The notes under the pieces are model-generated. The model was not told the origin of the DNA. It made no database searches and saw nothing but the letters and a program-made list of their open reading frames with translations. A DNA stretch of 64,000 bases from assembly GCA_049322915.1 (NCBI GenBank), contig JBMOPW010000019.1:31774-95773 (forward strand). Direction: 5' to 3'. Shown here piece after piece: positions 1 through 63,998 of the stretch. The stretch is from Candidatus Zhuqueibacterota bacterium (GTDB taxonomy: Bacteria > Zhuqueibacterota > Zhuqueibacteria > Thermofontimicrobiales > Thermofontimicrobiaceae). The number at the start of each line of letters is the position of its first letter. Position 1 is the first letter of the stretch. Made by a program: the position numbers and the translations under genes.

Positions 1-1
1 G

Positions 2-1119: not shown

Positions 1120-1325
1120 TGGCCGATGGCGTACAGGGCTCCTGTCCCTCAACGTACAGCATTTGAATTTTTTTCTGAATCAGTCGTCGCACGGCAATGA
1201 ATTCGTGTGGTATAACCAATTATAATTGTATGATTAAGTCCCTCAGCACGAACTGCCCATGTGATTTGGAACATTTTTTGTTCCCTCCTTCGTACGAACC
1301 CACATAGTGAAAAAGGTCACTTTCG

Positions 1326-2840
1326 ATGAAGTCATTTTCGAAAATTGCCACGCTCGCAGTACTTGTTCTGCTCACTGCTTTTTCGGAAAACCAGGCGCAA
1401 ATTGCCGACGCGCTTTCCAAAAAATTGGATAACAGTTTCAATCGGCTGGAGTTCACCAGGGACCTCCAGGTCTCTTTTTCGGACAAATCCGTTGAGCAGG
1501 AAATCAGCAATGCTGATATTCTACTCAGGCGCGCGCGGCGGCAACTGCAAAATAATCGGCCTGTCCTCGCCAATCGGTCGTTGAATGAGGCCAACGATCT
1601 GATCAATGTCGCGCTGCGGAAGCTGCTCAAGGAGCCGCTGAGAAAGCAACAGCAGGATCTGGATAGCCTCATTGAAACGGCGAAACTCATTGTGCCGGAC
1701 AGTCAGAATCCCAAAGCGAAAAACCAGTTGAAAATAGGGATAGAAAGCCGGGACGCTGCGCATCGGTATTATCGTCAGAACGAATTTCAAATCGCTTTGA
1801 AGCAAATCAGCCAGGCGTTTTTCCAGGTTCAAAAAGCCATTGACATGGTGAAAAATAGTGACCATGCGACAAAAGTCAAGGTGGAAGAAGAGAAAGCGGT
1901 CTTCGAGAGATTGTTGAAACAGACCGAAGGTAAAATTTCAACGAGCACTCATTCCACTGTGAAGAACAATTATCGACAGGCGATAAAGCTAACGGGCAAG
2001 GCCGAAGCGGCTCAGGCGAATCATGAATTCCAGCAGGCGATTGAATATTATCACCAGGCTACGCGGCTGCTGTTGCGTGCGCTCGATCTGGCCGAGGGCA
2101 ATGGCGACCGGACGGCAGTGAGAGCGCACGAAGAAGTAGCGGCGCTGGACGAACTCATTGAGAATTTTCAAAACAGAGTCCGGGAAGATCAGCAAGACGA
2201 TCGATTCGCGTATCTGGGGACGCGAATTTTACAGTTGCAGCAGGACGCTCACGTCGCGCTGGAAAACAAGAATTACAAATTAGCCTTGATGAACGCCCAG
2301 TTGGCCCGCGACCTCATTCAGCGTCTGGTGAATAACGCGCAATCTCCCCGCGGCGATGCCGATGAATTCCTGCAGGATGAATTTGACCAATTGGGAGTGG
2401 ATATCGAAGAGATCAAAAATCGGGCGAATCAGGCGGGTCATACAGAAGCCCTTGTGCTGCTTGGCTACGGCGAGGTCGCCAGGCAACGGGGCGAGCAATT
2501 TCTTCAGAATCGGAATTTGCGCCTGGCGCGAGAAAGCATTTTGACTGCCAACCGATTCGTCTTTGCCGCGGATGGTTTACTGCGGAATGAACGTTCGGAC
2601 CCGCCGGCCGAAGCGGACGTCCGGCAAAAAATTCAATCTGTCACCAGCGACTTTGAATCCATCCGCGATGATGTAAAAAATTCTCTCAAGCCGGAACTAC
2701 GGGTTCATGTCCAGCAGGCGTTGAAATTACTCAATCTCGCTCAGGAAAATATGAGCCAGAAATACTATTACGTCGCGGATGAATGCGCAGACCAGGCCCG
2801 GACGTTATTCGAAAAATGCCAGGTGCTCCTGGACAAATGA
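1326..2840 (+). CDS. Secreted alpha-helical repeat hypothetical protein
   Basis: Signal peptide-like N-terminus; repeated amphipathic helical pairs. Confidence 0.6.
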   Translation: MKSFSKIATLAVLVLLTAFSENQAQIADALSKKLDNSFNRLEFTRDLQVSFSDKSVEQEISNADILLRRARRQLQNNRPVLANRSLNEANDLINVALRKLLKEPLRKQQQDLDSLIETAKLIVPDSQNPKAKNQLKIGIESRDAAHRYYRQNEFQIALKQISQAFFQVQKAIDMVKNSDHATKVKVEEEKAVFERLLKQTEGKISTSTHSTVKNNYRQAIKLTGKAEAAQANHEFQQAIEYYHQATRLLLRALDLAEGNGDRTAVRAHEEVAALDELIENFQNRVREDQQDDRFAYLGTRILQLQQDAHVALENKNYKLALMNAQLARDLIQRLVNNAQSPRGDADEFLQDEFDQLGVDIEEIKNRANQAGHTEALVLLGYGEVARQRGEQFLQNRNLRLARESILTANRFVFAADGLLRNERSDPPAEADVRQKIQSVTSDFESIRDDVKNSLKPELRVHVQQALKLLNLAQENMSQKYYYVADECADQARTLFEKCQVLLDK

Positions 2841-3101
2841 AATCGCCGGAAATCGCCCCGGCCATTCCATTTCAGTCCGCTTCGGACATGGACTCAGTTG
2901 TCGTCTGCGCGCCACTATTTTTCGAAGTGATCAAAGCGCCCCGCGCAAACAGACCCGGCGCGGATCCATCCTGTTTCCAATTCTTTCGACATACTCCATC
3001 TTCCTTAACACCCCACAGCACCAGTGATTAATAGTTTTTGAAATTATGCCGAAAACTATTCTGGTAATTATGCCCCGAAAATTACGTCTGCCCGGCGCAG
3101 A

Positions 3102-4256
3102 ATGGGCACGCTATCGTGTGAACTCATCAGGATTCACCTTTTGAACGAAAATATTCTCATCGTCGAGGACAATGAATTTGTCCAGAAAAATTTGGTTCGG
3201 CTGCTCAAACTGGAGCATTACCATGTCGCCGTTGCCGATAACGGTGAAATTGCTTTGCGCGTGATGCAACACTTCACCCCCGATTTGATCCTCTCCGACA
3301 TCATGATGCCAGTCATGGATGGCTACGAACTTTTCGAACACCTTCAGCAGAACTTTGATTTGAAGAATACGCCGTTCATTTTTCTCACTTCCAAAAGTGA
3401 CCAGCAGGATATCCGTCTTGCCAAACGCCTCGGCGCCGATGATTACATTATCAAACCATACGATAGCGAAGATGTCCTGATCACCATTCGCGCGCGTCTG
3501 GATAAATTCCGCTCCATCAGGGAAAATTTCCAGAAGGAAGTCGAGGAGTTGAAGCAGGAAATTCTGTTCAAATTATCCCATGAAATCAGGACGCCTATTG
3601 CCGTGGTCAAAGGAGTGAGCGAACTCATTTCATCGTCCAAAAACATGTCCATCGACGACCTTCACCAGATGGCGCAGATTTTGAGCCATGGCTCCAATCG
3701 ATTGGAAAAACTGATCAACAAATTTCTCACTGTCAAAAGCCTCGCAGAAATACTTCAGGAGCCAGGCAAACGCCAGCTCTATCAATCTCAACAATTTGAA
3801 ATATCGTCCGGTCTGGAAAGCTCACTGCGCGACTCGTTTGAAGCGGCGTTGCAGGAATACAGCATCGACTTGAAAATATCCTGGGAAGATCGCCACCAAT
3901 CTCTTTACCCGATATTCCACAATCATTTGAAATCCATTCTATCTGAGCTGCTGGAGAATGCGATAAAATTTTCAGCCAATGGCGGCCTGGTTGAACTTTC
4001 CATCCTGAACTCCAGCGGCGGATTGACCATCGACATCACCGACCAGGGAATTGGCGTCCCTGAAAGTGAAATTCCAAAGCTCTACACAAAATTTTATCAG
4101 TACAACCGTCAAAAGATGGAACAACAGGGCGCGGGTCTTGGTTTGACAATTGTTCAATCCATTGTGAACCTGTACAATGGCCAGATCGAATTCCGAAGCG
4201 AAGTCGGCGTTGGAACGCGCGTCAGAATAGTCATCAAATCACCTGCAGCGTCCTGA
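3102..4256 (+). CDS. Hybrid response regulator/histidine kinase (REC-HisKA-HATPase)
   Basis: ILIVEDN...SDIMMP...IIKP receiver; SHEIRTP H-box; ENAIKF, DQGIG, GAGLGL; true start may be near 3141. Confidence 0.9.
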   Translation: MGTLSCELIRIHLLNENILIVEDNEFVQKNLVRLLKLEHYHVAVADNGEIALRVMQHFTPDLILSDIMMPVMDGYELFEHLQQNFDLKNTPFIFLTSKSDQQDIRLAKRLGADDYIIKPYDSEDVLITIRARLDKFRSIRENFQKEVEELKQEILFKLSHEIRTPIAVVKGVSELISSSKNMSIDDLHQMAQILSHGSNRLEKLINKFLTVKSLAEILQEPGKRQLYQSQQFEISSGLESSLRDSFEAALQEYSIDLKISWEDRHQSLYPIFHNHLKSILSELLENAIKFSANGGLVELSILNSSGGLTIDITDQGIGVPESEIPKLYTKFYQYNRQKMEQQGAGLGLTIVQSIVNLYNGQIEFRSEVGVGTRVRIVIKSPAAS

Positions 4257-4260
4257 GTTT

Positions 4261-5889
4261 TTGTCGCACCTGGCTCAGGGCTGGCGCTTTCAATCTTTCA
4301 CCACATGGCATCTGTTGTTTGCCCGGGCGGTTGGGAAATTCATGAATACTCGGCGGAACTTGTTTTCAGTCAAAGAGCCTTATGTGCACGTCTTGTTTTT
4401 GCCATTGGCTGTCTACCTCATTTTCATTTACCTGTTGACGCTGAACCCGTTTCGATTCTCCCTCCATTATCTTCATCAATTTTTACAATTCAGACTGGGC
4501 CTCATTCATTCCATCATCGGCAAGCTGAGCTGGTACGATATTCTGCTGAATCTGCTGATGTTTGTCCCGGTTGGATCCATCCTCGGAGTTTACTGGCGTC
4601 TCGACGGGGCAACGATGCGTCGCGCCGCGCTGGCCGGTACTGGCCTCGGATTTCTATCGAGCGCTTCCATTGAAATCGCCCAGTTATTTCTGCCCCGCAC
4701 ATTCTCGATTTTCGACATTTTTACCAATAGCCTCGGCGCTGGCATCGGCGTCATGCTTGCTTTTTCAATTCAAAAACAGCGATTGCAGTGCTGGTTACAG
4801 ACAATGTATTTCAAAAAAACACAGTTTTATTGGTGGCTCATCATCGTCTATTCGTCCTTTACCACAGTCGTTTTGCTCGTCCCTTGCTATTTCAACCACT
4901 TTGGCAACTGGAACGAGAGTTACCAGCTTTTCATCGGAAATGAGAAAACAATGAACCGTCCCTGGCAGGGCGCTGTTCAGAAAATTTCCATTTTCAATAA
5001 AGCGTTATCAACGGCCAAAATCGAGACGCTCTATCAAACAGATCCAACGCTGAATACACCGGCAGACCATGCCGCCGGACTCCTCGCGGAGTATATTTTC
5101 AATTCCGCCCCGGTGATAAATCGCGGTTTTCTGGGACAGGATTTGGAATTGCTGCCCTGGCGCGATTCCTGCATTCATGACAATTCGAATCCGGCGATAT
5201 TAGCCGATGATCGTGACGTCTTCCGAACAGCGAAACCAGCCTCCCGTCTCACCCGATTTTTGAAAGACGCCAATCGGCTGAGTGTCGTCATCTGGCTGAA
5301 ACCCACGACATTGCAGCAGACAGGTCCGGCGAGAATCATCTCGCTTTCCGAGGATTGCGACAATCGGAACTTCACCCTGGGACAGAGCGGTTCGATGCTC
5401 AATTTCAGAGTCAGGACTCCTTTGACCGGTAATAACGGCAACCGGGTCAGCCTTCATTCCGATCCTGTCCTGCAAACCAGCGCCATTCAGTGCGTAGCAG
5501 CCACCTATCATCGCGGCGAGATGCGACTCTATCATAATTCCCGGCAGGCGCCCGGCATCGTCTATGACACAAGCCCTTACCTGCCGCTGCTGATTGGCCT
5601 GCGGGAGGACAAATTCGGTAAACTCATTTTCTGTTTGTTCCTGCTCTATCCTCTGGGCTGGTTTGCACGCGGCCTGTCGCATCATCGAACCACGAAATAT
5701 CTCCTTTCCAGCGCGATTATTTTCCTCCCGTTTCTGGCGTCGTCCACCATTAAAGTATTGCATTTCCGACATCGGCTGGATCTGCCTCTGCTTTTCGCAG
5801 TGATTGCCGCGGCGATGTTTGTGGCGGTTAGCGGATTTCTTTTCGATCTACTCAAAAACCGTTACAGCGCCATTCGAGAAAACCAGTGA
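4261..5889 (+). CDS. VanZ-like membrane protein with LamG/concanavalin-like domain
   Basis: NLLMFVPVG...IEIAQLFLPRTFSIFDIFTN VanZ motif; GPARIIS...NFTLGQ LamG-like segment; start uncertain. Confidence 0.75.
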   Translation: MSHLAQGWRFQSFTTWHLLFARAVGKFMNTRRNLFSVKEPYVHVLFLPLAVYLIFIYLLTLNPFRFSLHYLHQFLQFRLGLIHSIIGKLSWYDILLNLLMFVPVGSILGVYWRLDGATMRRAALAGTGLGFLSSASIEIAQLFLPRTFSIFDIFTNSLGAGIGVMLAFSIQKQRLQCWLQTMYFKKTQFYWWLIIVYSSFTTVVLLVPCYFNHFGNWNESYQLFIGNEKTMNRPWQGAVQKISIFNKALSTAKIETLYQTDPTLNTPADHAAGLLAEYIFNSAPVINRGFLGQDLELLPWRDSCIHDNSNPAILADDRDVFRTAKPASRLTRFLKDANRLSVVIWLKPTTLQQTGPARIISLSEDCDNRNFTLGQSGSMLNFRVRTPLTGNNGNRVSLHSDPVLQTSAIQCVAATYHRGEMRLYHNSRQAPGIVYDTSPYLPLLIGLREDKFGKLIFCLFLLYPLGWFARGLSHHRTTKYLLSSAIIFLPFLASSTIKVLHFRHRLDLPLLFAVIAAAMFVAVSGFLFDLLKNRYSAIRENQ

Positions 5890-49225: not shown

Positions 49226-50800
49226 TCATTTCACTTCCAGTAACATTAACGCGATATCATCCTGCAACACTGAGTTTTTCGAAAAGCTCAGACAATGCTT
49301 CACCAGCGCGTTCAGCAGACGTTCGCCCTTCAATTGATTATTTTCCGTCAGAAAATTCTTGAGCCGCTCCATGCCAAAAAGCGCATTCCGGTCATCGGCC
49401 ATTTCAATGATGCCGTCGGTGTGAAGAAAGAGCTTGTGCTTCTTGCTGAATTCCATCTCGTAATTTTCATATTCAAAATCTTCCATGAAGCCAATGGCCA
49501 CGCCAAGTTTGCGCAGCTCAGTCACATGGCCATGCGGATCGATCATCAAAGGCAGCGCGTGATGGCCGGCCGATGCGTACGAAAGTCGGTATCGATTCAG
49601 GTCGATCACGCCGCACACAATCGTCAGATAAATGCCATTTTCAATGAAGTACTCCTCCTGATTGAAATTTCTATTCAATTGCCGGAGTATGTCCGCCGGG
49701 GTCAATGAATCGACATCAAATTTTTTCAGGATATTATTTATCTGTTCCCGAATGAACACCGTCACCAGCGCCGATGTGACGCCATGGCCGGACACGTCCG
49801 CAATATAGAAACCGATGCGGGAGTCGTCAATTTTGAAAATATTGATAAAATCGCCGCCCACCGTATTCGATGCCTGATAGAAGAAATTCACATCCAGGCT
49901 TTGGCACGCAGTCAACTCTCTGGGCAAAAGCGCTTCCTGAATTTTTCGGGCTGAATGCAGGTCCGCCTGAATCTGGTCACTTTTCTTGCGCAACTCGCTG
50001 TTCAGCGCTTCCAGTTTTATATTCGTCTCGCGGACTTTTTTCTGCAAATAAAAATTACGCGCATGCGCCTGCACGCGAGCCAGCAGCTCCGCCCTGTCAA
50101 ACGGCTTGGTGATATAATCGGTCGCGCCCGCGTCCAGCGCCTCGATCAGTTTGGATTTATCATCGACCGCAGTCAGGAACACAATGGGGATGTGATTGTA
50201 ACGCGGGTTCTTTCGGATGGCCTCCACGACCTGAAACCCGTTTTTGTGGGGCATCATGTAATCGAGTATCAGCAGTTCCGGGGCTTTTTGAGTGAATTGA
50301 GCCAGGGCCTGGTTTCCGTCCATGGCCAGACGAAGATTGGTGTAACCGTTCTTCTTCAGCAAATATTCCAGCATCCGTCGTGTGACCGCATCGTCTTCGG
50401 CAATCAAAATGTCAATTTCTTTTCCTGTTTCACGGGCCTCCTCGCGTTCTCGTTCGAACTCGCGGAGGCATTGCACCACTTCACCAGGCTGAACCGGCTT
50501 CTGCAAGATCATCGCGTCGCCATTCGCGCCCAATTTTTGCCTCACCCGGGCCGGATCGAGTTCCGTGAGAAAAACGATGGGGATGCCCCGGGTCTCGCTG
50601 CTTTGCCTCAGCGTCAAATAGAAATCGAACGCCGATGGGACCGATGCATTATCCTCCAGCACGATGAAATCTGGCCGGCGTTCCCGGACGGATTCGACCT
50701 TCGGCGCAGACATGACGCTGAAACCCTCTGCAGTCAGGAAGGAAGCAATACGCTCGCACAACGTATTGGTCGTATTGATCATCAGTACAAATTTGCCCAT
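49226..50800 (-). CDS. RsbU-like PP2C/SpoIIE phosphatase with two receiver domains
   Basis: Degenerate REC plus canonical REC (AEDD, LDYMMP, ITKP); GGDF, ADVSGHG, HTDG, DDI. Confidence 0.9.
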   Translation of the reverse strand: MGKFVLMINTTNTLCERIASFLTAEGFSVMSAPKVESVRERRPDFIVLEDNASVPSAFDFYLTLRQSSETRGIPIVFLTELDPARVRQKLGANGDAMILQKPVQPGEVVQCLREFEREREEARETGKEIDILIAEDDAVTRRMLEYLLKKNGYTNLRLAMDGNQALAQFTQKAPELLILDYMMPHKNGFQVVEAIRKNPRYNHIPIVFLTAVDDKSKLIEALDAGATDYITKPFDRAELLARVQAHARNFYLQKKVRETNIKLEALNSELRKKSDQIQADLHSARKIQEALLPRELTACQSLDVNFFYQASNTVGGDFINIFKIDDSRIGFYIADVSGHGVTSALVTVFIREQINNILKKFDVDSLTPADILRQLNRNFNQEEYFIENGIYLTIVCGVIDLNRYRLSYASAGHHALPLMIDPHGHVTELRKLGVAIGFMEDFEYENYEMEFSKKHKLFLHTDGIIEMADDRNALFGMERLKNFLTENNQLKGERLLNALVKHCLSFSKNSVLQDDIALMLLEVK

Positions 50801-51234
50801 GGTAACACCGGCTATCCAGAAATTGCATTCATCTTCGACATCACCGCGCCACCATTCAGGGAACGGGCGCCATTGTTAATATCGGCAGCGCCGCCTGTAA
50901 AATTGATGGGCAAAATAACGTCTGGCGCGAACAGGAGTCGTGGCCAGCGCAACTCCCCTGTCAGAATAGTGAAATGCACCGGGTGAGTCTCCACCAGCCG
51001 GCGTCACATCTCAACTGCACTGCACTTTATTATTCGAAGCAAAGCGCCGAGCCGGAGAAATATTTCGGTGAACCGGGCGGAATTTGACAGGCATGGAGGG
51101 AAAGCAATGTCATGAACCTGGCCCGCTTTTGAGCCGGGATTTCAAAATCAGCAGGTCGGAAAAAGCGGGTTGGACTGATTCAGGAGGTCATTGGCAAGGG
51201 GGTGGTTTTAATTTTTTTGGGAGAGGGAGATTTC

Positions 51235-51306
51235 ATTTATCGTGAGGCTCACCCGCCGATGTGAAGCGCCAGCGAAATAGCGGTCATGTGGAGCTATTTG
51301 TTAAAT
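51235..51306 (-). repeat. attC site (terminal; R'' ATTTAAC, degenerate R' GATAAAT)
   Basis: Minus strand atttaac-aaatagctccac..ccgcta..tcggcgggtgagc; R'' matches cassette start ATTAAAT at 55459-55453. Confidence 0.7.
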
Positions 51307-53671
51307 GATCTGATTTATCTTGAATAATATTTAGCGGAATCCGAACACACTTCATATTCTTGTCATGAATGGTTATTCCATATTCTAAATCTCTTGAAAG
51401 GATTATCATTATGGGTTTGTCTATTCGGTAATTCTCCTGGGCAGCAATCTCCGTTAGGCTCTTGATGTCAAGTCCGCTGGGTTCGTTGCCGCCTGAGGGG
51501 TGATAATGCCATTCTCCCAGATAAAGCCCTTTTTCACCGAGTTCGTTGAAAGCATCTAAAAGCTGTTTTTGACAGTATCCCTCATCCTTCTCGAATCGGA
51601 CTTTCGTTCTTATAGCATTCTGACCGGGCTTGCTCGCTTTAACAATTACATATTCCTCACCAGCATTTCTGTATCCGACCAAGACGCCACCTGTTTCAAC
51701 ATCCCCAGAGTCGGCCGACTCCTGCTTCATGAAATCGAGTACTTCCCTAAGAACATGAATTTTCTTGTCATCAAGCTTTTGACATACGAAACATTTGGGG
51801 TGAGGTGGGATTCTATCGGCCCGAATCAAACCATATGTTGAATTCCCAAGCTGCAGCCCATCCAGTGCCTCAGAACCCCATGTCCAATGATTGCTTTCGG
51901 TATTCTTGCCTTGCAGGAAATCAATAATGATACGAGAAAAGACGCCGGCGATAATCTTCATGTCAGCTGCGCTCGCAGGCCTCACTGGGTTGTTGCATTC
52001 ATTTGTTATGGTAGGGAGATTCTCATCTTCTGGGATATTCAGAAATATAGGATTCTTGTCTTTGAGATACAGTCCCAGACAAGCCTTGCACGCGTCTGTT
52101 TGGGGAATGGCCCTAAATATACGAGCAACTTTGCCACCACGCAAAGCCCTGCAGTAGAATACTGTCCTTCCTTGATCTATAGCCTGTTCATTGAGGTAGG
52201 CTTCTACATTATCGTCCGCTATCGTGGAAATTCCAATTGTGTTTTCTGGAAAATAGCTGTCAATTCTAGCGCTGAGGATATTTGAAAAGTTATATTCAAT
52301 ATTTACAAATGGATTGTGAATTAAGAGTTGTTCGACCATCCCAAATGCTTTAGGAATGCTCGTCCAGTTAATGCCCAAGACGTGTCTGATCGCATTGTGC
52401 GCCCTCATATCCTCTTTGTCCACCAACAGGATTCTTCCCACTCCAGCCTTGGTCAGTGCATCAGCTGTCTCAGAACCAAGCGCTCCGCAACCGATAATAG
52501 ATATCGCCTTATCCTTTAAGATGCCTCTCTTAGCCCTCCCAGTATTCCGCATATGGAAATAATCGTCAGTGAAATACTCCTGATACACTGCTTGTATAGA
52601 GTAATCAAGCAGCCTCAGTTTCAACTCTTCGTTACCGGCTCCAACAATGGGTAAACGACTTCCTTTGGCGAGCCTGAACATCTGCCAGTCTTTTTTTCTT
52701 GACCTTCCGGGGAATCTGATGCCAATGTAAATGCATTCATTCAGTCCGCTTAGTTCAGATTTAAGGCTATGCGCCAGTTCATCAATTCCGTTGCCCGCAT
52801 CACCATTGCCAATGTATCGTACAAATTCACTCACGTTCGAAAATGGTTCTGGCTCAATAGGAATTTCCCACCAGTATCCTTCAATTAATTGACCCTCACG
52901 CAATTTGGTCGCCTTTTCCTGACTATTGTTATCCAGGAGTAGGCGTTTGATGTCGGGAATGGGAGAGAACAAAATCAGCTGCTCATTTTTATAGGTCTTG
53001 GGAGGAAGCGAGACGCCTGCTCGGGTTTCACCATATAACATCACACCCGTGTAGGTTTTCTTGCCAATGTTGTCGGGAAGGAAGTTGGCTGGAATGAAGC
53101 TGGACAGTCCTGCGTAGAATTTTCCTTTTACTATTTCTTCATCAAAGAATAAATCAGGGAGAAGATACTGGATCTCATACGTTCTGCTTGGAAAGTGATG
53201 AAATAGCTCAACTTCACTGCTGTCTTTTGGGATTTTTCCGGACAGCCATATCCTTAATCTCTTAATAATATCTTCAATAGGGTATATTTCCGGGTTTTCG
53301 CCATGTAAGTCCCCCATTTCAACAAAGCAGACACTTCCGTCTTCATTCTGATGACGCCTATTGAAGAATCTGATATTGTTTTTTACCCGCTGCTTTATCT
53401 CTTCCGGTGCAATCTCTGAGTATTCTATTGCCGTTTCCTCGCTTATTTCATTATCCAGAATGTAGATTGTCGGGGGTATGTAAGGCGTAGCTTCAGGATA
53501 TACGATTAAGATAGGGAAGTATTCTGTTTTGCTTTTGTGAACTATAATATGGCCGCCGGATATGAGGGTTTGGCCTATGACCTGGTACTGCTCCCTGTAA
53601 ATGGAATTGGTGGAAAGCTCCCTTGTCTCCCTATACAACCAGGCAGTATTTCGGGCAAACCACTCCATCAA
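51284..53671 (-). CDS. Fused E2 (UBC-like) - E1 (ThiF) - JAB protein, Cap2/Cap3-like
   Basis: YPEATPYIPP and HQNEDGSVC (E2); IIGCGALGS..LVDKE..HNAIRH, CKAC, NEC, CFVC (E1); ETGG, GEWHYHP..PSGLD (JAB). Confidence 0.9.
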   Translation of the reverse strand: MMEWFARNTAWLYRETRELSTNSIYREQYQVIGQTLISGGHIIVHKSKTEYFPILIVYPEATPYIPPTIYILDNEISEETAIEYSEIAPEEIKQRVKNNIRFFNRRHQNEDGSVCFVEMGDLHGENPEIYPIEDIIKRLRIWLSGKIPKDSSEVELFHHFPSRTYEIQYLLPDLFFDEEIVKGKFYAGLSSFIPANFLPDNIGKKTYTGVMLYGETRAGVSLPPKTYKNEQLILFSPIPDIKRLLLDNNSQEKATKLREGQLIEGYWWEIPIEPEPFSNVSEFVRYIGNGDAGNGIDELAHSLKSELSGLNECIYIGIRFPGRSRKKDWQMFRLAKGSRLPIVGAGNEELKLRLLDYSIQAVYQEYFTDDYFHMRNTGRAKRGILKDKAISIIGCGALGSETADALTKAGVGRILLVDKEDMRAHNAIRHVLGINWTSIPKAFGMVEQLLIHNPFVNIEYNFSNILSARIDSYFPENTIGISTIADDNVEAYLNEQAIDQGRTVFYCRALRGGKVARIFRAIPQTDACKACLGLYLKDKNPIFLNIPEDENLPTITNECNNPVRPASAADMKIIAGVFSRIIIDFLQGKNTESNHWTWGSEALDGLQLGNSTYGLIRADRIPPHPKCFVCQKLDDKKIHVLREVLDFMKQESADSGDVETGGVLVGYRNAGEEYVIVKASKPGQNAIRTKVRFEKDEGYCQKQLLDAFNELGEKGLYLGEWHYHPSGGNEPSGLDIKSLTEIAAQENYRIDKPIMIILSRDLEYGITIHDKNMKCVRIPLNIIQDKSDHLTNSST

Positions 53672-54732
53672 GCACCCATGGGCTTCTTGTCAATTTTGCT
53701 TACTGGGGGTGGAAATACTATTCTTTTACCGCCTCCGCCCTTGCCACCGTCCTTTTTCCCGTATTCCTTGACCAAGTCATCATCAGGATAAAGGTCTATC
53801 ACTCCATCAGCATTTATATCAACAATTATGCATTCTCTTTTCTCACCTAAATGGAAAACATTATCGTCGCCCACCTCATCCTTATATAAATCCATGGCTT
53901 CCTTATGGGGATGATCGTGCTTGCTTTCTTCGTCTTTCGGAGCGCTGACTACGACATACGTTGGCTTAATGTTATTTAAGTGTTCTTTGTAAGGGTCTGC
54001 ATCTGTATCGGCATCTTTCCAGAAGAAGGATCTTGAACCATGGTGCGCAGCACTCAGGACCGTAGAAGGAAGCCTGTCATTATGGTAATCGGTGATATGT
54101 TCTTTCCATGCACTATAATCCGCATCTCCAGTGATAAGTATCTGTTTCTCCTCTTTTCCATACCTGAATCGAATGACCCCACATTGTTCATGAATCCTTG
54201 CATATCTCTCCTCTGGCTTTTCATCTTCTATTTCGTCAGATACATAGTCCGCGGGAGCCAATACGTTGTAATTTATGTCGCCCAGCACTATTTCTTCTTC
54301 ATCCAATTTGTTCTTTTCCCTGCTGCCTCGAAGGCGAAAGACGTTTTCGTTTCCCAGTTTTTTGATTACAAACTCCAGATCCTTATAGGTTTCCTTGTGC
54401 TCGCCGCCAGGCTTGTGCCCTGAATGCCATAATTGGTCAATGCCAATCTTTTCATAGATTTCCCTAACCTTTCCAAGATGGTCTTTATGGGGATGAGTGT
54501 TGATATAGACATCTAGGCCCCTTTCCTGCCCGTCAAAAAGTTCCTCAAGGAGCTTGATAATATCTATGCCACCAGCTTCTTCATCATAATTTGAATCTAT
54601 CAACACATACTTATAGCCGTCACTCCCAGGGACTGCAAGCAGCGTGGAATCACCTTGCCCGACGTAAAGGAATATTGTTCGGAAGATATTGGGCTCGGCT
54701 GGAATAATTACGTTTTTTGCTGTGTTCGACAT
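53668..54732 (-). CDS. ComEC/Rec2-like metallo-beta-lactamase-fold hydrolase with flexible tail ending PMGA
   Basis: VGQGD, THPHKDH, TGDA, HHGS, HDHP; ATGA overlap with E2-E1-JAB. Confidence 0.88.
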   Translation of the reverse strand: MSNTAKNVIIPAEPNIFRTIFLYVGQGDSTLLAVPGSDGYKYVLIDSNYDEEAGGIDIIKLLEELFDGQERGLDVYINTHPHKDHLGKVREIYEKIGIDQLWHSGHKPGGEHKETYKDLEFVIKKLGNENVFRLRGSREKNKLDEEEIVLGDINYNVLAPADYVSDEIEDEKPEERYARIHEQCGVIRFRYGKEEKQILITGDADYSAWKEHITDYHNDRLPSTVLSAAHHGSRSFFWKDADTDADPYKEHLNNIKPTYVVVSAPKDEESKHDHPHKEAMDLYKDEVGDDNVFHLGEKRECIIVDINADGVIDLYPDDDLVKEYGKKDGGKGGGGKRIVFPPPVSKIDKKPMGA

Positions 54733-54747
54733 CCATTGTCTCCTTTA

Positions 54748-55413
54748 TTATCCCTGTTCTGAAAATCGTACCAAAAACAGGTCATAGATTGATCTGGCGA
54801 AATCCTCGCCCCTTTTCTTTGTGCGAAAATAGCTTACTACTACACCAATAATGGTGAAAATCAGAACGCTAAGGATTACGGACTTCCTTTGGGGTTCAGT
54901 GAATAAAAAAACACCCAGGTCAAATAGAAAGAGAAAAGTGAAGGTTGTTAGAAGGCATCTGAATAGTCCATAATGTGCATTGAATATTTGAGGCCGATCG
55001 CTGAGATTTTCCTTATCCACAGCGTTGTAACAAAGATAAAAGATCTCCTGGTTCTTTTTGAGTTGTTTCTCTTTGGACTGGTCATCGTCAGCCTTGACGG
55101 AGTATTTGGCTCTGACTATCTCCTTGATTTTGCTCTTGTATTCGTTGCTGAACTTATTGTCATCTGGGAGAAGCCACTTTGCGGACGGGAATCCTCTCCA
55201 AACTTTCAGCAGTATCTTTTCTGTCAATCCCTGGCTAATTCCCTGCAAAATTAAACCGGTTACATAACCCAAAGCCACCAGGACAGAGGTCTCGGCCAGT
55301 CCGCCTGTAAATGGAATGTCTGCCGAATTGGAAATGAAGGAAACTCCCCAGAGGAAGAGAATCCCTGGTATTACCACTGCAATGAAGTCGTATAGAGAAA
55401 ACCTTGATACCAT
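54748..55413 (-). CDS. 4-TM membrane protein, first gene of the MBL/E2-E1-JAB operon
   Basis: YDFIAVVIPG N-terminus; two TM pairs around a soluble loop; 15 bp from the MBL start. Confidence 0.75.
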   Translation of the reverse strand: MVSRFSLYDFIAVVIPGILFLWGVSFISNSADIPFTGGLAETSVLVALGYVTGLILQGISQGLTEKILLKVWRGFPSAKWLLPDDNKFSNEYKSKIKEIVRAKYSVKADDDQSKEKQLKKNQEIFYLCYNAVDKENLSDRPQIFNAHYGLFRCLLTTFTFLFLFDLGVFLFTEPQRKSVILSVLIFTIIGVVVSYFRTKKRGEDFARSIYDLFLVRFSEQG

Positions 55414-55452
55414 AAATTCTTCTTACCTTACCCTATTAGGATTCAATTCTTC

Positions 55453-55550
55453 ATTTAATCGCGGCGCTGACCCGCGAGCACGCTGGCTGGGAGTCCCGCT
55501 TGCGGGACGGACAGACAGCGCGCGCAGTCGGGTCAAGTGCCATGTTCCGC
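55453..55550 (-). repeat. attC site (R'' GCGGAAC, non-canonical R' ATTAAAT)
   Basis: Long imperfect palindrome ttgacccg...cgggtcag. Confidence 0.75.
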
Positions 55551-55616
55551 CGCGCGTCAGCGCGGGGAGCATGGCACTGACGAAGTCAGCGCCGCGATTC
55601 CGCGCGACGAAGTCGC

Positions 55617-55676
55617 ACGGAACGTCAAGTTCAGTGGCGGAGCGTCAGCGGAGTCCGCTAGAGCGCCTGGTTGGGC
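55617..55676 (-). repeat. attC site (R'' GCCCAAC, R' GTTCCGT)
   Basis: 60-bp canonical-looking attC directly after hicA. Confidence 0.88.
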
Positions 55677-55682
55677 GATCGA

Positions 55683-55910
55683 TCACGACTCGAACTCGCT
55701 CCTGGGTATACCAGACTGGCGGATGATGGATTGAAGTGTGCCAATCCGCAGCTCGTCGTGGTTTGGAACGGGTACGGTAACCGTTGTATCAGGCAGATGC
55801 TTCTGCATCACGACATGGCTACCGCGCTGCCGCACTTCATGGAACCCATGGAGCACAAGGATGGCGCAAACTTGCTTCCCGGAGAGGACGCGGAGCTTAC
55901 CCAACGGCAA
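55683..55910 (-). CDS. hicA: HicA-family toxin
   Basis: RQRGSH, VPVPNH, GTLQSIIRQSG. Confidence 0.9.
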   Translation of the reverse strand: MPLGKLRVLSGKQVCAILVLHGFHEVRQRGSHVVMQKHLPDTTVTVPVPNHDELRIGTLQSIIRQSGIPRSEFES

Positions 55911-56118
55911 CCTCCACTCGGGTCACATACACTTCTTCATGCAAGCGCGTCTGGATCTCCTCGGGCGAGGCTGTTTCGAAAAATAGCTCTAGTGCTTCCC
56001 GAAGATTTTCGCGGGCTTCTTCGATGGTATCGCCCTGACTGGCGATATCGAGTTCTGGGCAAAGCGACACATACCCGCACCCTTCCCGCTCAATAAACGC
56101 TGTAAGTTGCTTCTGCAT
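55897..56118 (-). CDS. hicB: HicB-like antitoxin (short form)
   Basis: CPELDIASQGDTIEEARENLREALELF; start at MQKQ. Confidence 0.88.
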   Translation of the reverse strand: MQKQLTAFIEREGCGYVSLCPELDIASQGDTIEEARENLREALELFFETASPEEIQTRLHEEVYVTRVEVAVG

Positions 56119-56274
56119 AATATCTACTCCAATTTTCTGAATCGTCATTCCTCGGTTTCGCGAACCAAGGCTTGTGCTACGCGCACGAACCAGTTATCTC
56201 TTGTAGAGCCAACAGTTGCGATAAGTTTATAGGTCAGTTTAGTGGTCATTCGAGCCTCCTGTGCCGACTGTACG

Positions 56275-57122
56275 GTCGGGTAGGTCGGGGGCATTGCTGC
56301 CCCTTTCCCCCCTAAGAACCGTACGTGACAGTTTCCCGTCATACGGCTCAAGCCTCTGAAAAGTATCCCTTGTGGGGATACCCACGAATTAATAATAATT
56401 TGTTTCACGTTACATTCTGATATTCAGAATAGCCATAAGGTATGTAGAGTGCACCATCCCGACTCGTCGGGACGTCATTTGCTTTCTCTACTTTCATCTG
56501 ATTACACCAGTATTCACGAGACCAGAGACCTGCTGAACGTCTGCCTCTTTACAGAGTCCCGATTCATCGGGATATCCCGACCATTACAGCCGGACATTCG
56601 CTTCTTTCAGCATCCTATTCCAATCCACCATCAGCTTGCCTTACGGTTAGCCTGCCCATCATAACAGGGCGATGGAATTGGGTTTCCACGTTCCGTATAA
56701 TTGACCCCAATGAGTAACTTAGGTGGATTCTCTACGCCGGCGATACGACAGTTCCGTATAGGTAGTTAGAAGACCTATAACCTGATCGCCTGTGTAAACA
56801 CAAGGAAACACAGCTTATACCTATTTCTGGTTTTAGCCAGAATTTAATCTCCGTAAGTATGATGCACCATTGACGACGCTTACAGACTTTCAATTGATTT
56901 CACCATATTACTCAGACCTTAGCCCTTAACCGGAGGAGATTTCCGGATGGGTTTTCATCTCACGATGTCCGACCGTTTCGGTGCATTGTCCGGTGAGCTT
57001 CACACCCCGTCATCAGCGCAACGGTAGCATGTCACCGTAAGGTACTGATAGGAACATATCAGGTTTGTCTAAAGAACAATATCTCTTTAACAAACATTCA
57101 ATTATACAGCCTCGTGTCGCAC
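56275..57122 (-). ncRNA. ORF-less group II intron (848 nt) inserted in attC R'
   Basis: 5' GTGCG at 57122; 34-nt domain V GAGCCGTATGACGGGAAACTGTCACGTACGGTTC (56349-56316); domain VI with bulged A and 3' AC at 56275; exons rejoin to GTTAGG|C. Confidence 0.88.
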
Positions 57123-57254
57123 CCTAACGACAAGTGTAACCTGCCAAAGGGCTTGATTGCACAGCACTTATGAACTTAACATAACTTTGATGAATGCACT
57201 ACTTTTCTGGATTTCATCGTCCGCCCTTTGGTCAGGTTGACGCAAAGGTTAGCT
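57123..57254 (-). repeat. attC site (R'' AGCTAAC, R' GTTAGG)
   Basis: caacctgaccaaagggc / gccctttggcaggtt arms. Confidence 0.85.
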
Positions 57255-57272
57255 GAAAGTTATTAATATGTG

Positions 57273-57848
57273 TTACCTTATATCTATAAATTCTGTTTTC
57301 ATTAATTCTTTTATTCGTATATCAATATGATGATTTTTAATATATTCAAATGTAGATATAGGAACTAAATGATTCCATAATTCATCGTTAAGAATTTTAC
57401 ATCTTATCTCATGACCTGAATAAGGTTTACTAATTAATTCTCTTCTCCAAAGGATTTCTACTTTTAAATTTAACGACTTTAAAAGATACAATTTTTTCTC
57501 ACCCCATTCATCATAAATCGTAATAAAATAGGTGGCTTCTTTAGGTGTGTAATAATGCAATAATTCTGGAATATTAATAGGAAAGGGAACTATACAAAAA
57601 TCAGATGAACTATAACCACTATCAAAAAGAGCCTTTTGTAATATGTTATATCGTTCGAAATATGTTAATGGATTTGAAGATGGTGACGATCGATGTAAAG
57701 CTGTTTTATCTTCTTTTGTATGAGTCGGATCTGGATTTGTAATACCAATATACATATAATTAACTCTTTTCATTCCTGCTAATAGGTATTCCATATGTCC
57801 AAGATGTAATGGTTGAAATCTCCCATGAATAACACCTATTTTAATCAT
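57273..57848 (-). CDS. HxGH nucleotidyltransferase (NMNAT/cytidylyltransferase-like)
   Basis: HGRFQPLHLGH, IGITNPD, NPLTYFER, SGHEIR. Confidence 0.85.
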   Translation of the reverse strand: MIKIGVIHGRFQPLHLGHMEYLLAGMKRVNYMYIGITNPDPTHTKEDKTALHRSSPSSNPLTYFERYNILQKALFDSGYSSSDFCIVPFPINIPELLHYYTPKEATYFITIYDEWGEKKLYLLKSLNLKVEILWRRELISKPYSGHEIRCKILNDELWNHLVPISTFEYIKNHHIDIRIKELMKTEFIDIR

Positions 57849-57850
57849 TA

Positions 57851-58654
57851 TTATGCCTTTTTAAAAAAATCAACTATTTCATCAATGCTTAGAGCTTCAT
57901 TCCATAAATGCTTAAAGCTTTCAATTAATTTTTCATAAAGATTTTCTGAATCAATTTTTTTTACTATAAAGCTTGGACGATGCTGGGGAGTAAATTTATG
58001 TAAGATTGGTTCAACTTTAATCATACCGCTATTTGTATCTTTATCAATAAAAAGTATAGAAGCCGTTGGAATAGTAGGGTAACACTTTATTTCAATATTC
58101 GCCTTAACCGAGGGATCATTAATCTCATCTAACCAATCCTTTTGGTGAAGGATATTGTTTTTTAATAAATCAGGCAATCCTTTAAAAGTGTGGACTTTTC
58201 CGACTTCTCCTACCCAAGGTAACAATTTACCATCTTTATTTATTGGACTCATGATTAAAAGTTTAATTTTTATTCCTTTTTGGGCTTTTTGTCGCAGTAA
58301 TGGTAAATGAAGATGTGTAACAGCACCAAGCTGTAGCCCCATAATTATTAATTCTTGTTTAGTTTCGTTTAGTATTTTATCAATTGAAGGAACATCCGAT
58401 CGATCAGTAAAAAAATCTGAAATTCCTTTAATTCTACTTGAAATTTGTAATGATAATAAGGATCTGTTATTTTTGATTTGATTATAAATAAGTAACGATA
58501 GGACTGCTAAAGTAACAGAAATACTAATTTGCTGTTTAATATTATCCAAAATACCAAGAATAGCCACTACTAATGCAATAATAATTAGCAGGTAATTCTC
58601 AATATTCTTACCTTCTTTTAAATCTTGTAAAATGTTTGACAAGCTTTTAAACAT
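57851..58654 (-). CDS. 2-TM protein with DUF5919/PLD-like domain
   Basis: Two N-terminal TMs; IKLLIMSP, IEIKCY...FID, F..LWNEA. Confidence 0.65.
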   Translation of the reverse strand: MFKSLSNILQDLKEGKNIENYLLIIIALVVAILGILDNIKQQISISVTLAVLSLLIYNQIKNNRSLLSLQISSRIKGISDFFTDRSDVPSIDKILNETKQELIIMGLQLGAVTHLHLPLLRQKAQKGIKIKLLIMSPINKDGKLLPWVGEVGKVHTFKGLPDLLKNNILHQKDWLDEINDPSVKANIEIKCYPTIPTASILFIDKDTNSGMIKVEPILHKFTPQHRPSFIVKKIDSENLYEKLIESFKHLWNEALSIDEIVDFFKKA

Positions 58655-58683
58655 TAATTACTCCTATATAATTAATCTAAAGC

Positions 58684-58742
58684 AGCTAACGCCAGGGTTC
58701 AGCCGCGCGGTTTTCTGCGTCGGCTGGAACTCTTTGTTGGGG
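58684..58742 (-). repeat. attC site (R'' CCCCAAC, R' GTTAGCT)
   Basis: 59-bp canonical attC: ttccagccgacgc..gcgcggctgaa. Confidence 0.9.
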
Positions 58743-59451
58743 TACCTTCGCTCTTCATGGTGATTTGTGTTTTTAGTTTAGATATCTGAGCAGAGACTCG
58801 TTGAATCCTATCCATAGGAATCATTAAAAAAAGAAAAAGCAAAACGAAAATCAGCCCTACACTTATTCCACCTTCAAGAACATTTGTTTTGGAAAGCGAA
58901 TAAACACTAATCACGGATAAGGCAATATAGATCGCTTTTGAAATAACCTCTTTCCTAAAGTCCTTTTTTCGGAGACACGCGTTTTCTGCTTCAAGTCGAT
59001 CAACCTCTGTTTCAAGATATTCAGTACGTCCAATTAGTTTGTCGACAACTGGCGTGGTATCCGCAATCTGTAAATTGATTGTTTTTTCAACCAAGATGTA
59101 TTTTTTTATTTTGTTAGATAGTTCTTTAATATCAACGGGTTTTGTAATAAAATCACATGCGCCATTTCTAATACAACGAATAGCGGTGTCACGGTCTTTA
59201 AAATACCCTGAGAACATGACGACCCTTGTCTCAACGCCACGTTTCTTAAACTCTTCTAAAACTTCGAATCCATCAAGCACTGGAAGCTGAATGTCTAATA
59301 GCACCAGATCGGGGTTTACCTTTGCTGCAATTTCGACAGCTTCTCGACCATCAATTGCAGTTGACACATCATAACCAGTTTTCTCAAAGTATCGTTTAAG
59401 TAGTGTGGAAATGTCAGGTTCATCATCTACGATAAGTATTTTGTCTGTCAT
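58699..59451 (-). CDS. Receiver domain + coiled coil + 2-TM protein
   Basis: IVDDE, LLDIQLP, FSG, ITKP; start at MTDK; stop lies within attC. Confidence 0.8.
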   Translation of the reverse strand: MTDKILIVDDEPDISTLLKRYFEKTGYDVSTAIDGREAVEIAAKVNPDLVLLDIQLPVLDGFEVLEEFKKRGVETRVVMFSGYFKDRDTAIRCIRNGACDFITKPVDIKELSNKIKKYILVEKTINLQIADTTPVVDKLIGRTEYLETEVDRLEAENACLRKKDFRKEVISKAIYIALSVISVYSLSKTNVLEGGISVGLIFVLLFLFLMIPMDRIQRVSAQISKLKTQITMKSEGTPTKSSSRRRKPRG

Positions 59452-59460
59452 TTTTTTAAA

Positions 59461-59588
59461 CCCCAACATTAGCATGAGGAGCACGAGGGAAAAGAGTATA
59501 TACTTTTCCTATTGTGCCACTCACTAAAATTGTCAAGAATTATCCTTTTTTCCCAAACCCTCGTGTCTGCTCAATGCTGTCGTTGCAC
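59461..59588 (-). repeat. attC site (R'' GTGCAAC, R' GTTGGGG)
   Basis: gcattgagcagacacgaggg / ccctcgtgctcctcatgc arms. Confidence 0.85.
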
Positions 59589-60944: not shown

Positions 60945-61104
60945 GTGCAACAAGTGATTATATAGTTTCTGCATAACATCCCGGAACAGGTTAATACTGC
61001 GGCACAGAACAACAATAGAAACAGTGCCTTTTGTGAAATGATTTTCTATATCTCAGGAAATTAGACGGACCGCATAACGCCCAAAAAAGTATGTTATACA
61101 GAAA
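60945..61104 (-). repeat. Truncated attC-like site (R' GTTGCAC kept, R'' missing)
   Basis: tttctgcataacat / atgttatacagaaa inverted arms; R' matches R'' at 59582-59588. Confidence 0.55.
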
Positions 61105-61247
61105 GATGGTTTATTAATGGAACCAATTCCTGCCAAGATTCAAAATCCCAACGTCGCTTTGACAAAAGCCCAATACGTGTATCAGCAATGATAGCGTCTT
61201 AGGGGCGAGAAAGAGACATGAATACTGAACAGGAGTGTACGAAAATT

Positions 61248-61337
61248 AATATAACAACAACTCGTAAAAAATCAAGTCTTTTTTTCCGAATTTAAAAAAA
61301 TTTCCTGACTAAAATTACCTGGGGAACGCATCGAATC
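61248..61337 (-). promoter_or_regulatory. 90-bp direct repeat carrying a putative promoter, copy 1
   Basis: Minus strand TTGATT-16 bp-TATATT with AT-rich upstream; one mismatch to 62335-62424. Confidence 0.65.
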
Positions 61338-61693
61338 CTCAGCCAGCATTTCACTGAAAGGGGAGTCGTTTCATGGAATGGTATGTGTCGGGGCTTACTC
61401 CCTCATCGCCATCGTCATGTCGCCGGTGAACACTCCCCCACCTTTATGAAAAGCGTTCCAATACACTGGATTGGCCATATGTTCTTCCGGCTCATCGCCA
61501 AAAAATGCCTCCCGTGTTGCCTGCTGGTTGATCATGTTCCGTTGGGTGGTGTCTTATTTTCCACAATCATTTTCGTCAGCACGAGCCGTATTATACCCCC
61601 AATCGCAAGTGACCTTGTTCAGATCATCAATGCCCAACTGATGCAGCAAATTCCGTATCACGCTATCGCTCCTCTGAATATCGTCTTCATAAG

Positions 61694-61759
61694 ACGCAAT
61701 GCCCGCATTACAGGGAGATGCCCGCCGGGGACATTATCCGGCTCATGCGGTGGTTAGGA
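61694..61759 (-). repeat. attC site (R'' TCCTAAC, degenerate R' ATTGCGT)
   Basis: ccgcat..atgtccc / gggcat..atgcgg palindrome overlapping the stop of the upstream ORF. Confidence 0.65.
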
Positions 61760-62185
61760 CATAAATAGCCGTATAAGCAAGCATACTGAAATCATGCACA
61801 ACGAAGCTTGCATGACTACTATATATGTTGATGTGTTAATCTTTCCCACTGCTGTTGAATGAGCCGTTACAAGAAATGATTTGATCAATGTATCAATCCC
61901 CAGTTCTTTCTCATGGGCTTTGATGATTTCAAATTTCTCTTTCTGCCGCCGGCGATGATGGAGGGCAATGATAAGACCGAATACACTATTCAAGATTACT
62001 GCGCTGTAAGCAAGGGCAAGGTAGAAGATGTTAACCTGCTTTATCTCTAAACCCACGACACCAAGGAAGAAAAGAATAGAGTATTGAAGTACTTTCCACG
62101 TTTGATCTCGCATATGAAAATGGTCTTGCCATTGAGTCTTAAGATTGTCGGAGAGTATGCTCATTCTGTCTTCCATGTTTTTCAT
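61754..62185 (-). CDS. Small 3-TM hypothetical cassette protein
   Basis: Two N-terminal TMs, basic loop, C-terminal TM; stop TAA inside R''. Confidence 0.65.
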   Translation of the reverse strand: MKNMEDRMSILSDNLKTQWQDHFHMRDQTWKVLQYSILFFLGVVGLEIKQVNIFYLALAYSAVILNSVFGLIIALHHRRRQKEKFEIIKAHEKELGIDTLIKSFLVTAHSTAVGKINTSTYIVVMQASLCMISVCLLIRLFMS

Positions 62186-62220
62186 CCTTTTATTGTGCTA
62201 ATAAGTAATTTCACAAACCT

Positions 62221-62318
62221 GCATAACATCTCAGATGCATTGAGTACGCCGCAGAACAAATTCTGTAACATCATTGCCTTTGGTGAAATCGTTCGGCGCT
62301 CATCTGAAGATGATGCAG
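62221..62318 (-). repeat. Degenerate attC-like site (R' GTTATGC)
   Basis: atctcagatg..cgccg / cggcg..catctgaagat arms; R'' decayed. Confidence 0.5.
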
Positions 62319-62334
62319 ACCGTAGCGTAAGATG

Positions 62335-62424
62335 AATATAACAACACCTCGTAAAAAATCAAGTCTTTTTTTCCGAATTTAAAAAAATTTCCTGACTAAA
62401 ATTACCTGGGGAACGCATCGAATC
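62335..62424 (-). promoter_or_regulatory. 90-bp direct repeat carrying a putative promoter, copy 2
   Basis: Copy of 61248-61337. Confidence 0.65.
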
Positions 62425-62462
62425 TTTAGTACAGCGTTCCACAATTTTTTGTCGGGTAGGTT

Positions 62463-62562: not shown

Positions 62563-62627
62563 AGCATTCCATTCATGCAGTTTTGAAAATTTTCAAACCT
62601 TATAAAAATTTATGAAATGGTGTACTT

Positions 62628-62794
62628 AGCCTGCATTATTCATAGGATTTTTAAAGGGGGCTGGCTAACCTGAATGGTGCTCTTTTTAGAATAAACGTAT
62701 AAAAACTGAGTTTCAACATAGCTTAGTTTTTAGCTAGTTGAAAATCTGAATGTTGACTCAAATTCTGAGCAAGTTCATGAATAATTCAGGTTAG
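62628..62794. mobile_element. ~167-bp MITE-like element, copy 2 (inverted)
   Basis: Reverse complement of 26645-26811 with a few substitutions. Confidence 0.75.
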
Positions 62795-63698: not shown

Positions 63699-63761
63699 TT
63701 TGCTTTATTATTCAACGCAGAGACGCAGAGGACGCAGAGCTTCGCCGAGTTTTTCTATAGT

Positions 63762-63998
63762 TTATTCCGGTAACTTGTTAACCACTCGCTCAATTCCATC
63801 ACGCAGCAATTCCACATGAAAATTTATTAGTAAGCCTAAATGTTTTTCACTCAATCGTAAATATGTTAAAAGCTTTAGCTTATCTATAGCTGATAATGTT
63901 TCTTTTGCTTTCAAATCAACGATGACTTTATCTTCAACTAATAAATCTAACCGTAAGCCTGTACTTAGCTTTATACCTTTGTATGGAATCGGTACACT
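63762..63998 (-). CDS. GxxExxY-family protein, C-terminal part (5' end beyond window)
   Basis: Manual translation YKG..RLDLLVEDKVIVDLKA..LLTYLRLS..LGLLINF..GIERVVN. Confidence 0.85.
   Translation of the reverse strand, partial: SVPIPYKGIKLSTGLRLDLLVEDKVIVDLKAKETLSAIDKLKLLTYLRLSEKHLGLLINFHVELLRDGIERVVNKLPE

Follow-up and report, generated by a model that had tools for sequence, protein, structure and literature searches.

Cassettes in CALIN arrays (groups of attC sites that have no integron integrase) have been reported to reach about 2 kb at the largest, and the distance within which attC sites are clustered was set at 4 kb (Cury et al. 2016, PMC4889954). Complete defence-type systems in one cassette have been catalogued by Darracq et al. 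(10.1101/2024.07.02.601686), whose survey (783 systems, default IntegronFinder settings) found at most two components and shortened genes. Here we describe a locus within a 64,000-nucleotide stretch of DNA (the window) from a Candidatus Zhuqueibacterota bacterium, in which three minus-strand genes encoding an E2–E1–JAB fusion protein, a metallo-β-lactamase (MBL)-fold hydrolase and a Csx27-like membrane protein almost certainly form one 4,218-bp integron cassette, C6, the last in an array of six. C6 resembles the cassettes of Cury et al. in attC anatomy, in the pairing of cassette start and R'' box, in having a stop codon within attC and in belonging to an array without an integrase gene (intI), and differs in size, 4.2 kb against about 2 kb. 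The array is filed as CALIN-like because no TIGR02249 (intI) match over the cut-off was found in the genome assembly. Like the systems of Darracq et al., C6 holds a complete defence-type system in one cassette; unlike them, it carries three full-length genes, of a type (6A-MBL) that may lie outside the models used there.

The 6A-MBL systems, or MBL group of E2–E1–JAB operons, of van den Berg et al. likewise pair a fused E2–E1–JAB protein with an MBL-fold enzyme whose C-terminal glycine is conserved; here, by contrast, profile scores fall far under the cut-offs, the operon begins with a Csx27-like membrane gene, and the whole is carried as a cassette. The Csx27 family has been linked to competence genes (PMC7642515, citing Makarova et al. 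2019); C6 resembles it in having a Csx27-like membrane protein beside a ComEC-like MBL, and differs in its cassette context and in the absence of Cas13 from the cassette. The novelty lies in how large the cassette is, the protein system itself being known in type. Our literature search found no report of a larger or multi-gene cassette like C6, or of a 6A-MBL system as a cassette; subscription papers and preprint supplements may hold larger ones. Multi-gene restriction–modification cassettes are known from the older literature. The features of the cassette are as follows.

51241–55458, minus strand: cassette C6, 4,218 bp, last of six in the array; aligns over its full length (1–4212) with the homologous locus L032 at 80% nucleotide identity
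55450–55458, minus strand: 5' end of the cassette, pairing with its own R''; L032 and L037 begin identically after a canonical G
54748–55413, minus strand: Csx27-like membrane protein of 221 aa with three segments of strong hydrophobicity (PADLOC Csx27, E 2e-16)
53668–54732, minus strand: MBL-fold hydrolase, 354 aa, HxHxDH motif (Pfam Lactamase_B)
51284–53671, minus strand: E2–E1(ThiF)–JAB fusion, 795 aa (Pfam ThiF and Prok-JAB; PADLOC E1-E2 and JAB)
51235–51306, minus strand: attC of C6, 72 bp, with R'' (51306–51300), a 5-nt spacer, L'' with one extra base, L', a 5-nt spacer and R' (GAT-AAAT), from the covariance model, box pairing and relatives
51232–51240, minus strand: flank after the crossover, equal to the first 9 bases of the cassette at 8 of 9 positions; fits the attG GWT consensus

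Sequence evidence for a single cassette

Read on the minus strand from 55459, the sequence begins ATTAAATGA, and the R'' box of the cassette's attC is TCATTTAAC at 51308–51300; the box ends in AAC and pairs with the cassette's own start. The cassette proper extends from T at 55458 to G at 51241. The A at 55459 is part of the upstream site, 51240–51235 are downstream flank, and the crossover position lies between 51241 (G) and 51240. The R' cores at the two ends read ATT (55459–55457) and GAT (51241–51239), with GTT at neither crossover, and the stop codon of the E2–E1–JAB gene (51286–51284) falls inside attC. The initial annotation, which had described the three genes as one large multigene cassette with this complementary core pair, this stop codon and these cores, is borne out on each point. 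The GC content of C6 is 43.6%, against 48.8% for the genome. A contig from the probable source run, which is not independent of the assembly, spans 50000–55485 including both junctions with zero differing letters; the cassette was not present in two further runs of the same study. The window ends at a contig end.

The attC was scored with our own 11-sequence covariance model rather than that of IntegronFinder. The model was built from other attC sites, of which this array supplied four, contig C28 one and the homologous loci L021, L032, L033 and L037 six; the C6 site, its orthologue and its hairpin family were left out. The model returned 51235–51306 end to end, with its exact ends and on the strand of the other array sites, at 16.6 bits (rough E 0.031 for 64 kb, filters off), the best match in the window besides the four training sites and one opposite-strand echo. 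Nine matches were obtained at E up to 1: these six, one at 63710–63783 (16.3 bits), one at 13.4 kb on the other strand (12.7 bits) and the site of the neighbouring cassette C5 (12.0 bits). The first 51 kb of the window held only the 12.7-bit match. With the C6 attC as a DNA query against 167 genomes of the phylum, 14 others matched at E up to 0.05; the three best matches are attC-type sites in three genomes (82–85% identity, E 6e-13 to 3e-9), two of them complete with AAC/GTT cores and the third cut by a contig end. The same query against plasmids by blastn gave only eight chance-level pieces.

Within the site, six of seven L-box pairs and two of three core pairs are formed, against seven of seven L-box pairs in the orthologue at L032. 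The unconstrained fold is unremarkable (z −1.2 for the bottom strand, −1.8 for the top), which taken alone speaks against an attC here, while such weak folding fits a decayed site.

Homologous loci

Homologue scans returned 37 loci (19 from genomes and 18 from metagenomes), 21 of them close (MBL 75–90% identical) and 16 distant. Complete cassettes occur at two of the close loci. L032 (4,214 bp) starts as C6 does and has a GTT site upstream and a near-identical attC (58 of 66 positions), whereas L033 (4,278 bp) has an R box and attC of another type, GTT at both ends, a place directly behind an attI-like site, and further attC sites after it. The same operon with a GTT-intact attC in another array, which the initial annotation had proposed to look for, therefore exists, with GTT at both ends in L033 and upstream in L032. 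The single-cassette reading also passed both tests set for it in the initial annotation, as 51235–51306 scores as an attC and operons homologous to this one do carry attC. Two more loci (L021 and L037) have a 5' junction of canonical form, and their sequence stops short of the 3' side. Relic boxes are present in L028, L029, L030 and L035, and weak traces were seen by eye in L026 and L036. No cassette traces were found in L002, L004, L007, L023, L025, L031 and L034, and the remaining four close loci (L022, L024, L027 and L038) were too short to judge. The covariance training set included the sites that flank L021, L037, L032 (upstream) and L033 (downstream), so the scores of these sites arise by construction; the downstream site of L032, outside that set, scores 24.3 bits. 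Fourteen of the 16 distant loci were searched with the model at default filters, with no attC match.

In a tree of E2–E1–JAB proteins (20 rows), the window groups with L028 and L029 (100/99), and L033, L021 and L030 form a separate clade (100/99) with L007 and L036; the deeper forks are unsettled. The occurrence of two attC types on separate branches suggests two captures or a replacement of the site.

Arrival of the operon by an insertion sequence or by illegitimate recombination, with a relic attC at its end mimicking a cassette, would suit the seven of 21 close loci without cassette signs, the 14 distant loci without an attC match and the weak folding of 51235–51306 on its own. We regard this route as very improbable: the complementarity of start and R'' is exact, C6 is colinear with L032 from the first base through attC, and the complete cassettes in two other arrays (L032 and L033) largely refute it. 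The reading of the three genes as one cassette stands in its place.

The occurrence of a three-gene cassette of 4.2–4.3 kb in several arrays, once in first position, means that the cassette size limit is soft. The flanking sites are separated by 4,147 bp in C6 and by 4,143 bp in L032, both over the 4-kb default of IntegronFinder, and the locus suggests that the size limit is partly a product of that clustering default. One of the two papers explains the published limits of about 2 kb and two components by limits on recombination. The homologue series, from intact cassettes through relic boxes to no trace, makes a case for the entry of an operon into the cassette pool and its exit from it. We lean slightly towards a general picture in which a class of complete multi-gene defence cassettes over 4 kb is split and missed by default detection, the 6A-MBL-like unit has been captured as a cassette at least twice, still moves into attI and is later domesticated by attC loss, and a natural family of A-ending attC sites recombines with G-type partners via a bottom-strand T–G wobble.

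Several of the homologous loci have features of their own. The attI-like site of L033 adjoins a divergent, internally deleted IntI-like remnant (L033:2–151, minus strand), in which N- and C-terminal IntI-like motifs are fused in one 50-residue frame. At L007 another gene, presumably patatin-like from its motifs, occupies the place of the membrane gene (3904–5127). At L030 the membrane gene is missing from its usual place, and an intron-like fragment lies ahead of the MBL gene (4650–5000).

Origin of the ATT and GAT cores

The core bases that flank C6 stem from its neighbours. Upstream, the ATT belongs to C5, a cassette without an open reading frame (ORF).

55459–55622, minus strand: ORF-less cassette C5, 164 bp, attC at 55550–55453 ending in A before TT; member of a repeat family (covariance 12 bits, E 0.85)

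A pattern search of this genome found A before TT in seven of seven copies of the C5 family, with a different sequence after each (one is cut by a contig end), and an eighth, divergent copy on contig C33 is also A-ending. The family is present in at least four genomes; in the three others, nine of 11 ends read ATT and none GTT. An exact matching R'' was found downstream for three of the six own-genome C5-type sites checked, the element stands first behind an attI-like site on contigs C3 and C12, and C5 opens with 46 bases that repeat, in inverted orientation, its predicted circle junction, with the A already in place. Since the family copies carry ATT before varied followers, and the inverted junction copy holds the A as well, the A travels with a mobile element. 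Decay of GTT to ATT was considered and rejected: ATT is the fixed family end of a mobile ORF-less cassette.

On the bottom strand, an A-ending site gives a T–G wobble. Unlike first bases were found to cost about 300-fold where both hairpin arms were changed (Frumerie et al., PMC2811028); the uncompensated A-ending case may be milder in cost, and uncompensated ATT is not among the mutants described in the accessible text of that paper. The rule that partner sites share the same first base could be tested on this naturally A-ending family.

Downstream, the GAT is uncompensated in C6 and leaves a mismatch at position 2 of the hairpin core (distal core AAC/GAT). The possibility that GAT is intrinsic to the C6 attC, L032 also having GAT, was rejected: the GAT at L032 belongs to the next cassette, whose own R'' has the matching ATC. 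That neighbour (L032:4338–5311) is a natural cassette with a compensated non-canonical core, starting after the G with AT and having an R'' that ends in ATC.

The bases after the G would come from the target. The last attC meets host DNA at G-A-T, as in attG insertions with their GWT consensus (Loot et al., 10.1101/2022.09.11.507474); unlike those insertions, the CRGM hot-spot motif at positions 6–9 is missing, the flank comes close to a repeat of the cassette start, and an attI-like site heads the array. A decayed GTT, as implied in the initial annotation, has a little less than even probability in our estimate: the flank would be the stump of a tandem cassette copy or circle junction whose first T later became A. 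The flank equals the cassette's own start at eight of nine positions, only 62 of 444,051 genomic GWT sites share its next seven bases (1.4e-4; 2.4e-3 given the R' consensus GWTRRRY), and none of the array's other junctions shows such a repeat of its own start. Such a stump requires three events, namely duplication, a deletion that stops about 10 bp beyond the site and a single-base change, whereas GAT-AA fits the attG consensus without those steps. A search of the flank as DNA against 40 relatives for an empty site gave no match. Comparison with the 287-bp recQ–spoIIE gap of the same-genus genome G001 gave a score of 28, reached by 13 of 500 shuffles, with the match far from the junction; the gap is too divergent to align convincingly.

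Mobility of C6

C6 is probably excised only very rarely, its excision being strongly reduced. In the circular form, the bottom-strand energy of its site is −10.3 kcal/mol, against −19.8 kcal/mol for L032. The recombining-fold probability in the array, under our own constraint scheme, is 7e-3 for C6, compared with 0.18–0.40 for C1–C3, 2e-2 for L032, 5e-3 for C5 and 6e-8 for C4. A core mismatch at position 2 recombined at 6e-6 against 2.2e-3 (another base pair, attC × attI; PMC2811028), and GAT hurts only as an uncompensated hairpin mismatch (PMC2811028). In a capture library, the sole cassette that was not recovered was one with attC sites 4 kb apart (10.64898/2026.03.17.712381). Cassette size and the missing integrase weigh as much as the core bases for reduced excision. 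Besides lacking a TIGR02249 match over the cut-off, the genome yielded only two weak tyrosine-recombinase matches, at 25% identity to a relative's IntI.

We propose that an integron integrase, acting in trans or since lost, inserted a circular cassette between recQ and spoIIE, and that C6 would be the earliest surviving member of the array. Five cassettes would later have been added upstream, the ORF-less C5 bringing its own A-ending site. Retention of C6 may then result from a T–T mismatch next to the bottom-strand cleavage point together with a weakened stem, from a partner site with A against the G here, from sites more than 4 kb apart and from the lack of an integrase gene in the assembly.

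Several points count against a locked cassette. GAT is harmless in a double-stranded partner (4.6-fold of wild type) and tolerated in attI1 or if compensated (PMC2811028); and the published ATT and mismatch data concern IntI1, attC × attI and other mismatches (PMC2811028). Cassettes inserted in a genome were excised in two of 24 clones (10.1101/2022.09.11.507474). The mobility of A-ending sites is evident, as different cassettes come after them and in two cases they themselves stand behind an attI-like site. Completeness of the assembly is 96%, the window ends where its contig does, and intI is carried by three of 13 family relatives. No joint skipping C6 occurs among the contigs of the probable source run, and this absence proves nothing because contigs drop rare variants.

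On these grounds the cassette might be real and still mobile, with competent A-ending sites, the GAT as an attG-like partner and an unassembled intI acting in trans. The constancy of ATT in the C5 family, the tolerance of GAT in attI1 and the natural cassette with a compensated GAT/ATC core at L032 agree with this, as do about ten attI-like platforms with different first cassettes, which imply past integrase activity in the lineage. Continued mobility is nevertheless unlikely in view of the decay of the stem relative to L032, the size penalty, the lack of an intI in the assembly and the uniformity of the unit in the probable source run, and strongly reduced excision remains our reading. The description of C6 as non-excisable in the initial annotation was a reasonable one, on grounds that differ in part from those given there (the GAT mismatch, the weak stem, the size and the missing integrase); its argument from ATT falls as stated, this being a trait of a mobile family.

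Integration site and relative age

In G001, recQ directly precedes the spoIIE orthologue, and the 287-bp gap between them contains no covariance match. In the window, a remnant of recQ lies upstream of the attI-like platform that heads the array.

61523–61663, minus strand: degenerate recQ 3' end, 69% nucleotide identity to the end of the genome's recQ

At the end of contig C4 lie a better-preserved recQ 3' copy, this platform again and the beginning of cassette C1. From the recQ remnant, the end of contig C4 and the gene order in G001, the array likely fills the gap between recQ and spoIIE; the true left-neighbour contig is uncertain because C1 is repeated. C6 had also been described as captured early. 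By its position it would indeed predate the five upstream cassettes; since the array is absent from the G001 gap and none of the phylum's 166 other genomes gave a match to the MBL query, "early" applies within this array only.

The encoded proteins

The best NCBIfam match of the E2–E1–JAB protein is 6A-MBL_cap2_3 (135 bits, cut-off 320) and that of the hydrolase is 6A-MBL_enzyme (64 bits, cut-off 220). The membrane protein scores 33.7 bits against NCBIfam Csx27 (cut-off 65). Both 6A-MBL profile scores lie below cut-off, hence the label "6A-MBL-like". Residues C115, G394/G396/G399, C559, E659, H722/H724 and D735 of the fusion are invariant in 15 homologues; we take them, by the motifs of Cap2 and Cap3, to represent the E2 cysteine, the E1 cysteine and the JAB site. 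The penultimate Gly353 of the hydrolase is invariant in 23 homologues. The traits of 6A-MBL systems are therefore present, namely an MBL metal-binding motif with a C-terminal glycine and a fused E2–E1–JAB with conserved cysteines and JAB residues, and by analogy the operon is likely a divergent 6A-MBL-like, anti-phage system. Against this assignment, the scores stay below the curated cut-offs of the 6A-MBL profiles NF058523 and NF058524. As for expression at the array end, a search of 55380–56300 found no sigma-70-like consensus promoter. In 2019 Makarova and colleagues reportedly linked the Csx27 family to ubiquitin-like genes.

By analogy with Cap2 and Cap3 of type II cyclic-oligonucleotide-based antiphage signalling systems (CBASS), the E1 domain would adenylate the C-terminal glycine of the MBL, the E2 domain would ligate the MBL to a target and the JAB domain would trim or reverse the link, with the MBL and the membrane protein possibly forming the defence output. 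MBL conjugation and phage defence are inferred here from Cap2/Cap3 and from PMC11601596 and PMC13276650; MBL operons are not described in the accessible part of the Cap2 preprint.

The upstream cassettes and attI-like platforms

The array runs on the minus strand from an attI-like site (G at 60951) through C1–C6. In C1, C2, C3, C5 and C6, the R'' box pairs with the start of the same cassette.

60949–60980, minus strand: attI-like site heading the array, no intI alongside; one of about ten dispersed copies in the genome
59461–59588, minus strand: attC of C1 (IS91-family transposase gene)
58684–58742, minus strand: attC of C2 (response-regulator gene)
57122–57254, minus strand: attC of C3, whose two genes encode 267 aa and a cytidylyltransferase-like protein of 191 aa
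55617–55676, minus strand: attC of the HicB–HicA cassette C4, the closest site upstream whose core is GTT; recombining-fold probability very low

C1 (59467–60950) carries the IS91-family transposase gene as cassette cargo with matching R boxes, and its start recurs at the end of contig C4. The AT-rich C3 (57273–58654) encodes a 267-aa membrane-anchored protein without a Pfam, PADLOC or NCBIfam match and a cytidylyltransferase-like enzyme, possibly a defence pair. An ORF-less group II intron (about 57123–56274) in cassette direction starts in the R' box of the C3 attC and belongs with C4; an identical copy occurs on contig C32 and a 92% copy on contig C36.

The attI-like platforms are dispersed over the window (60949–61350 and 62200–62440) and contigs C3, C4, C12, C13, C14, C28 and C34. 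Most precede a different first sequence and head short arrays, several with promoter-like sequence upstream as judged by eye. A loose genome-wide count of the motif gave 30 against 15 in a reversed control, so only copies with additional BLAST support were counted. The motif lies downstream of co-oriented IntI N-terminal remnants in G004 (L059) and G018 (L060). Allowing up to two mismatches, its core was not found next to any of four intact intI genes from relatives, one of which (L054) shows a loose look-alike by eye; the exact motif has no match in G001.

Elsewhere in the window, a second attI-like site with an ATT core lies ahead of a 143-aa gene (61754–62200), and the further attC match at 63710–63783 is upstream of a second HicA–HicB pair. 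One contig alone shows a joint of 55624 to 59465, its short side being 30 letters long; this joint does not touch C6. A 169-bp repeat at 62626–62794 is present in many dozens of copies across the genome.

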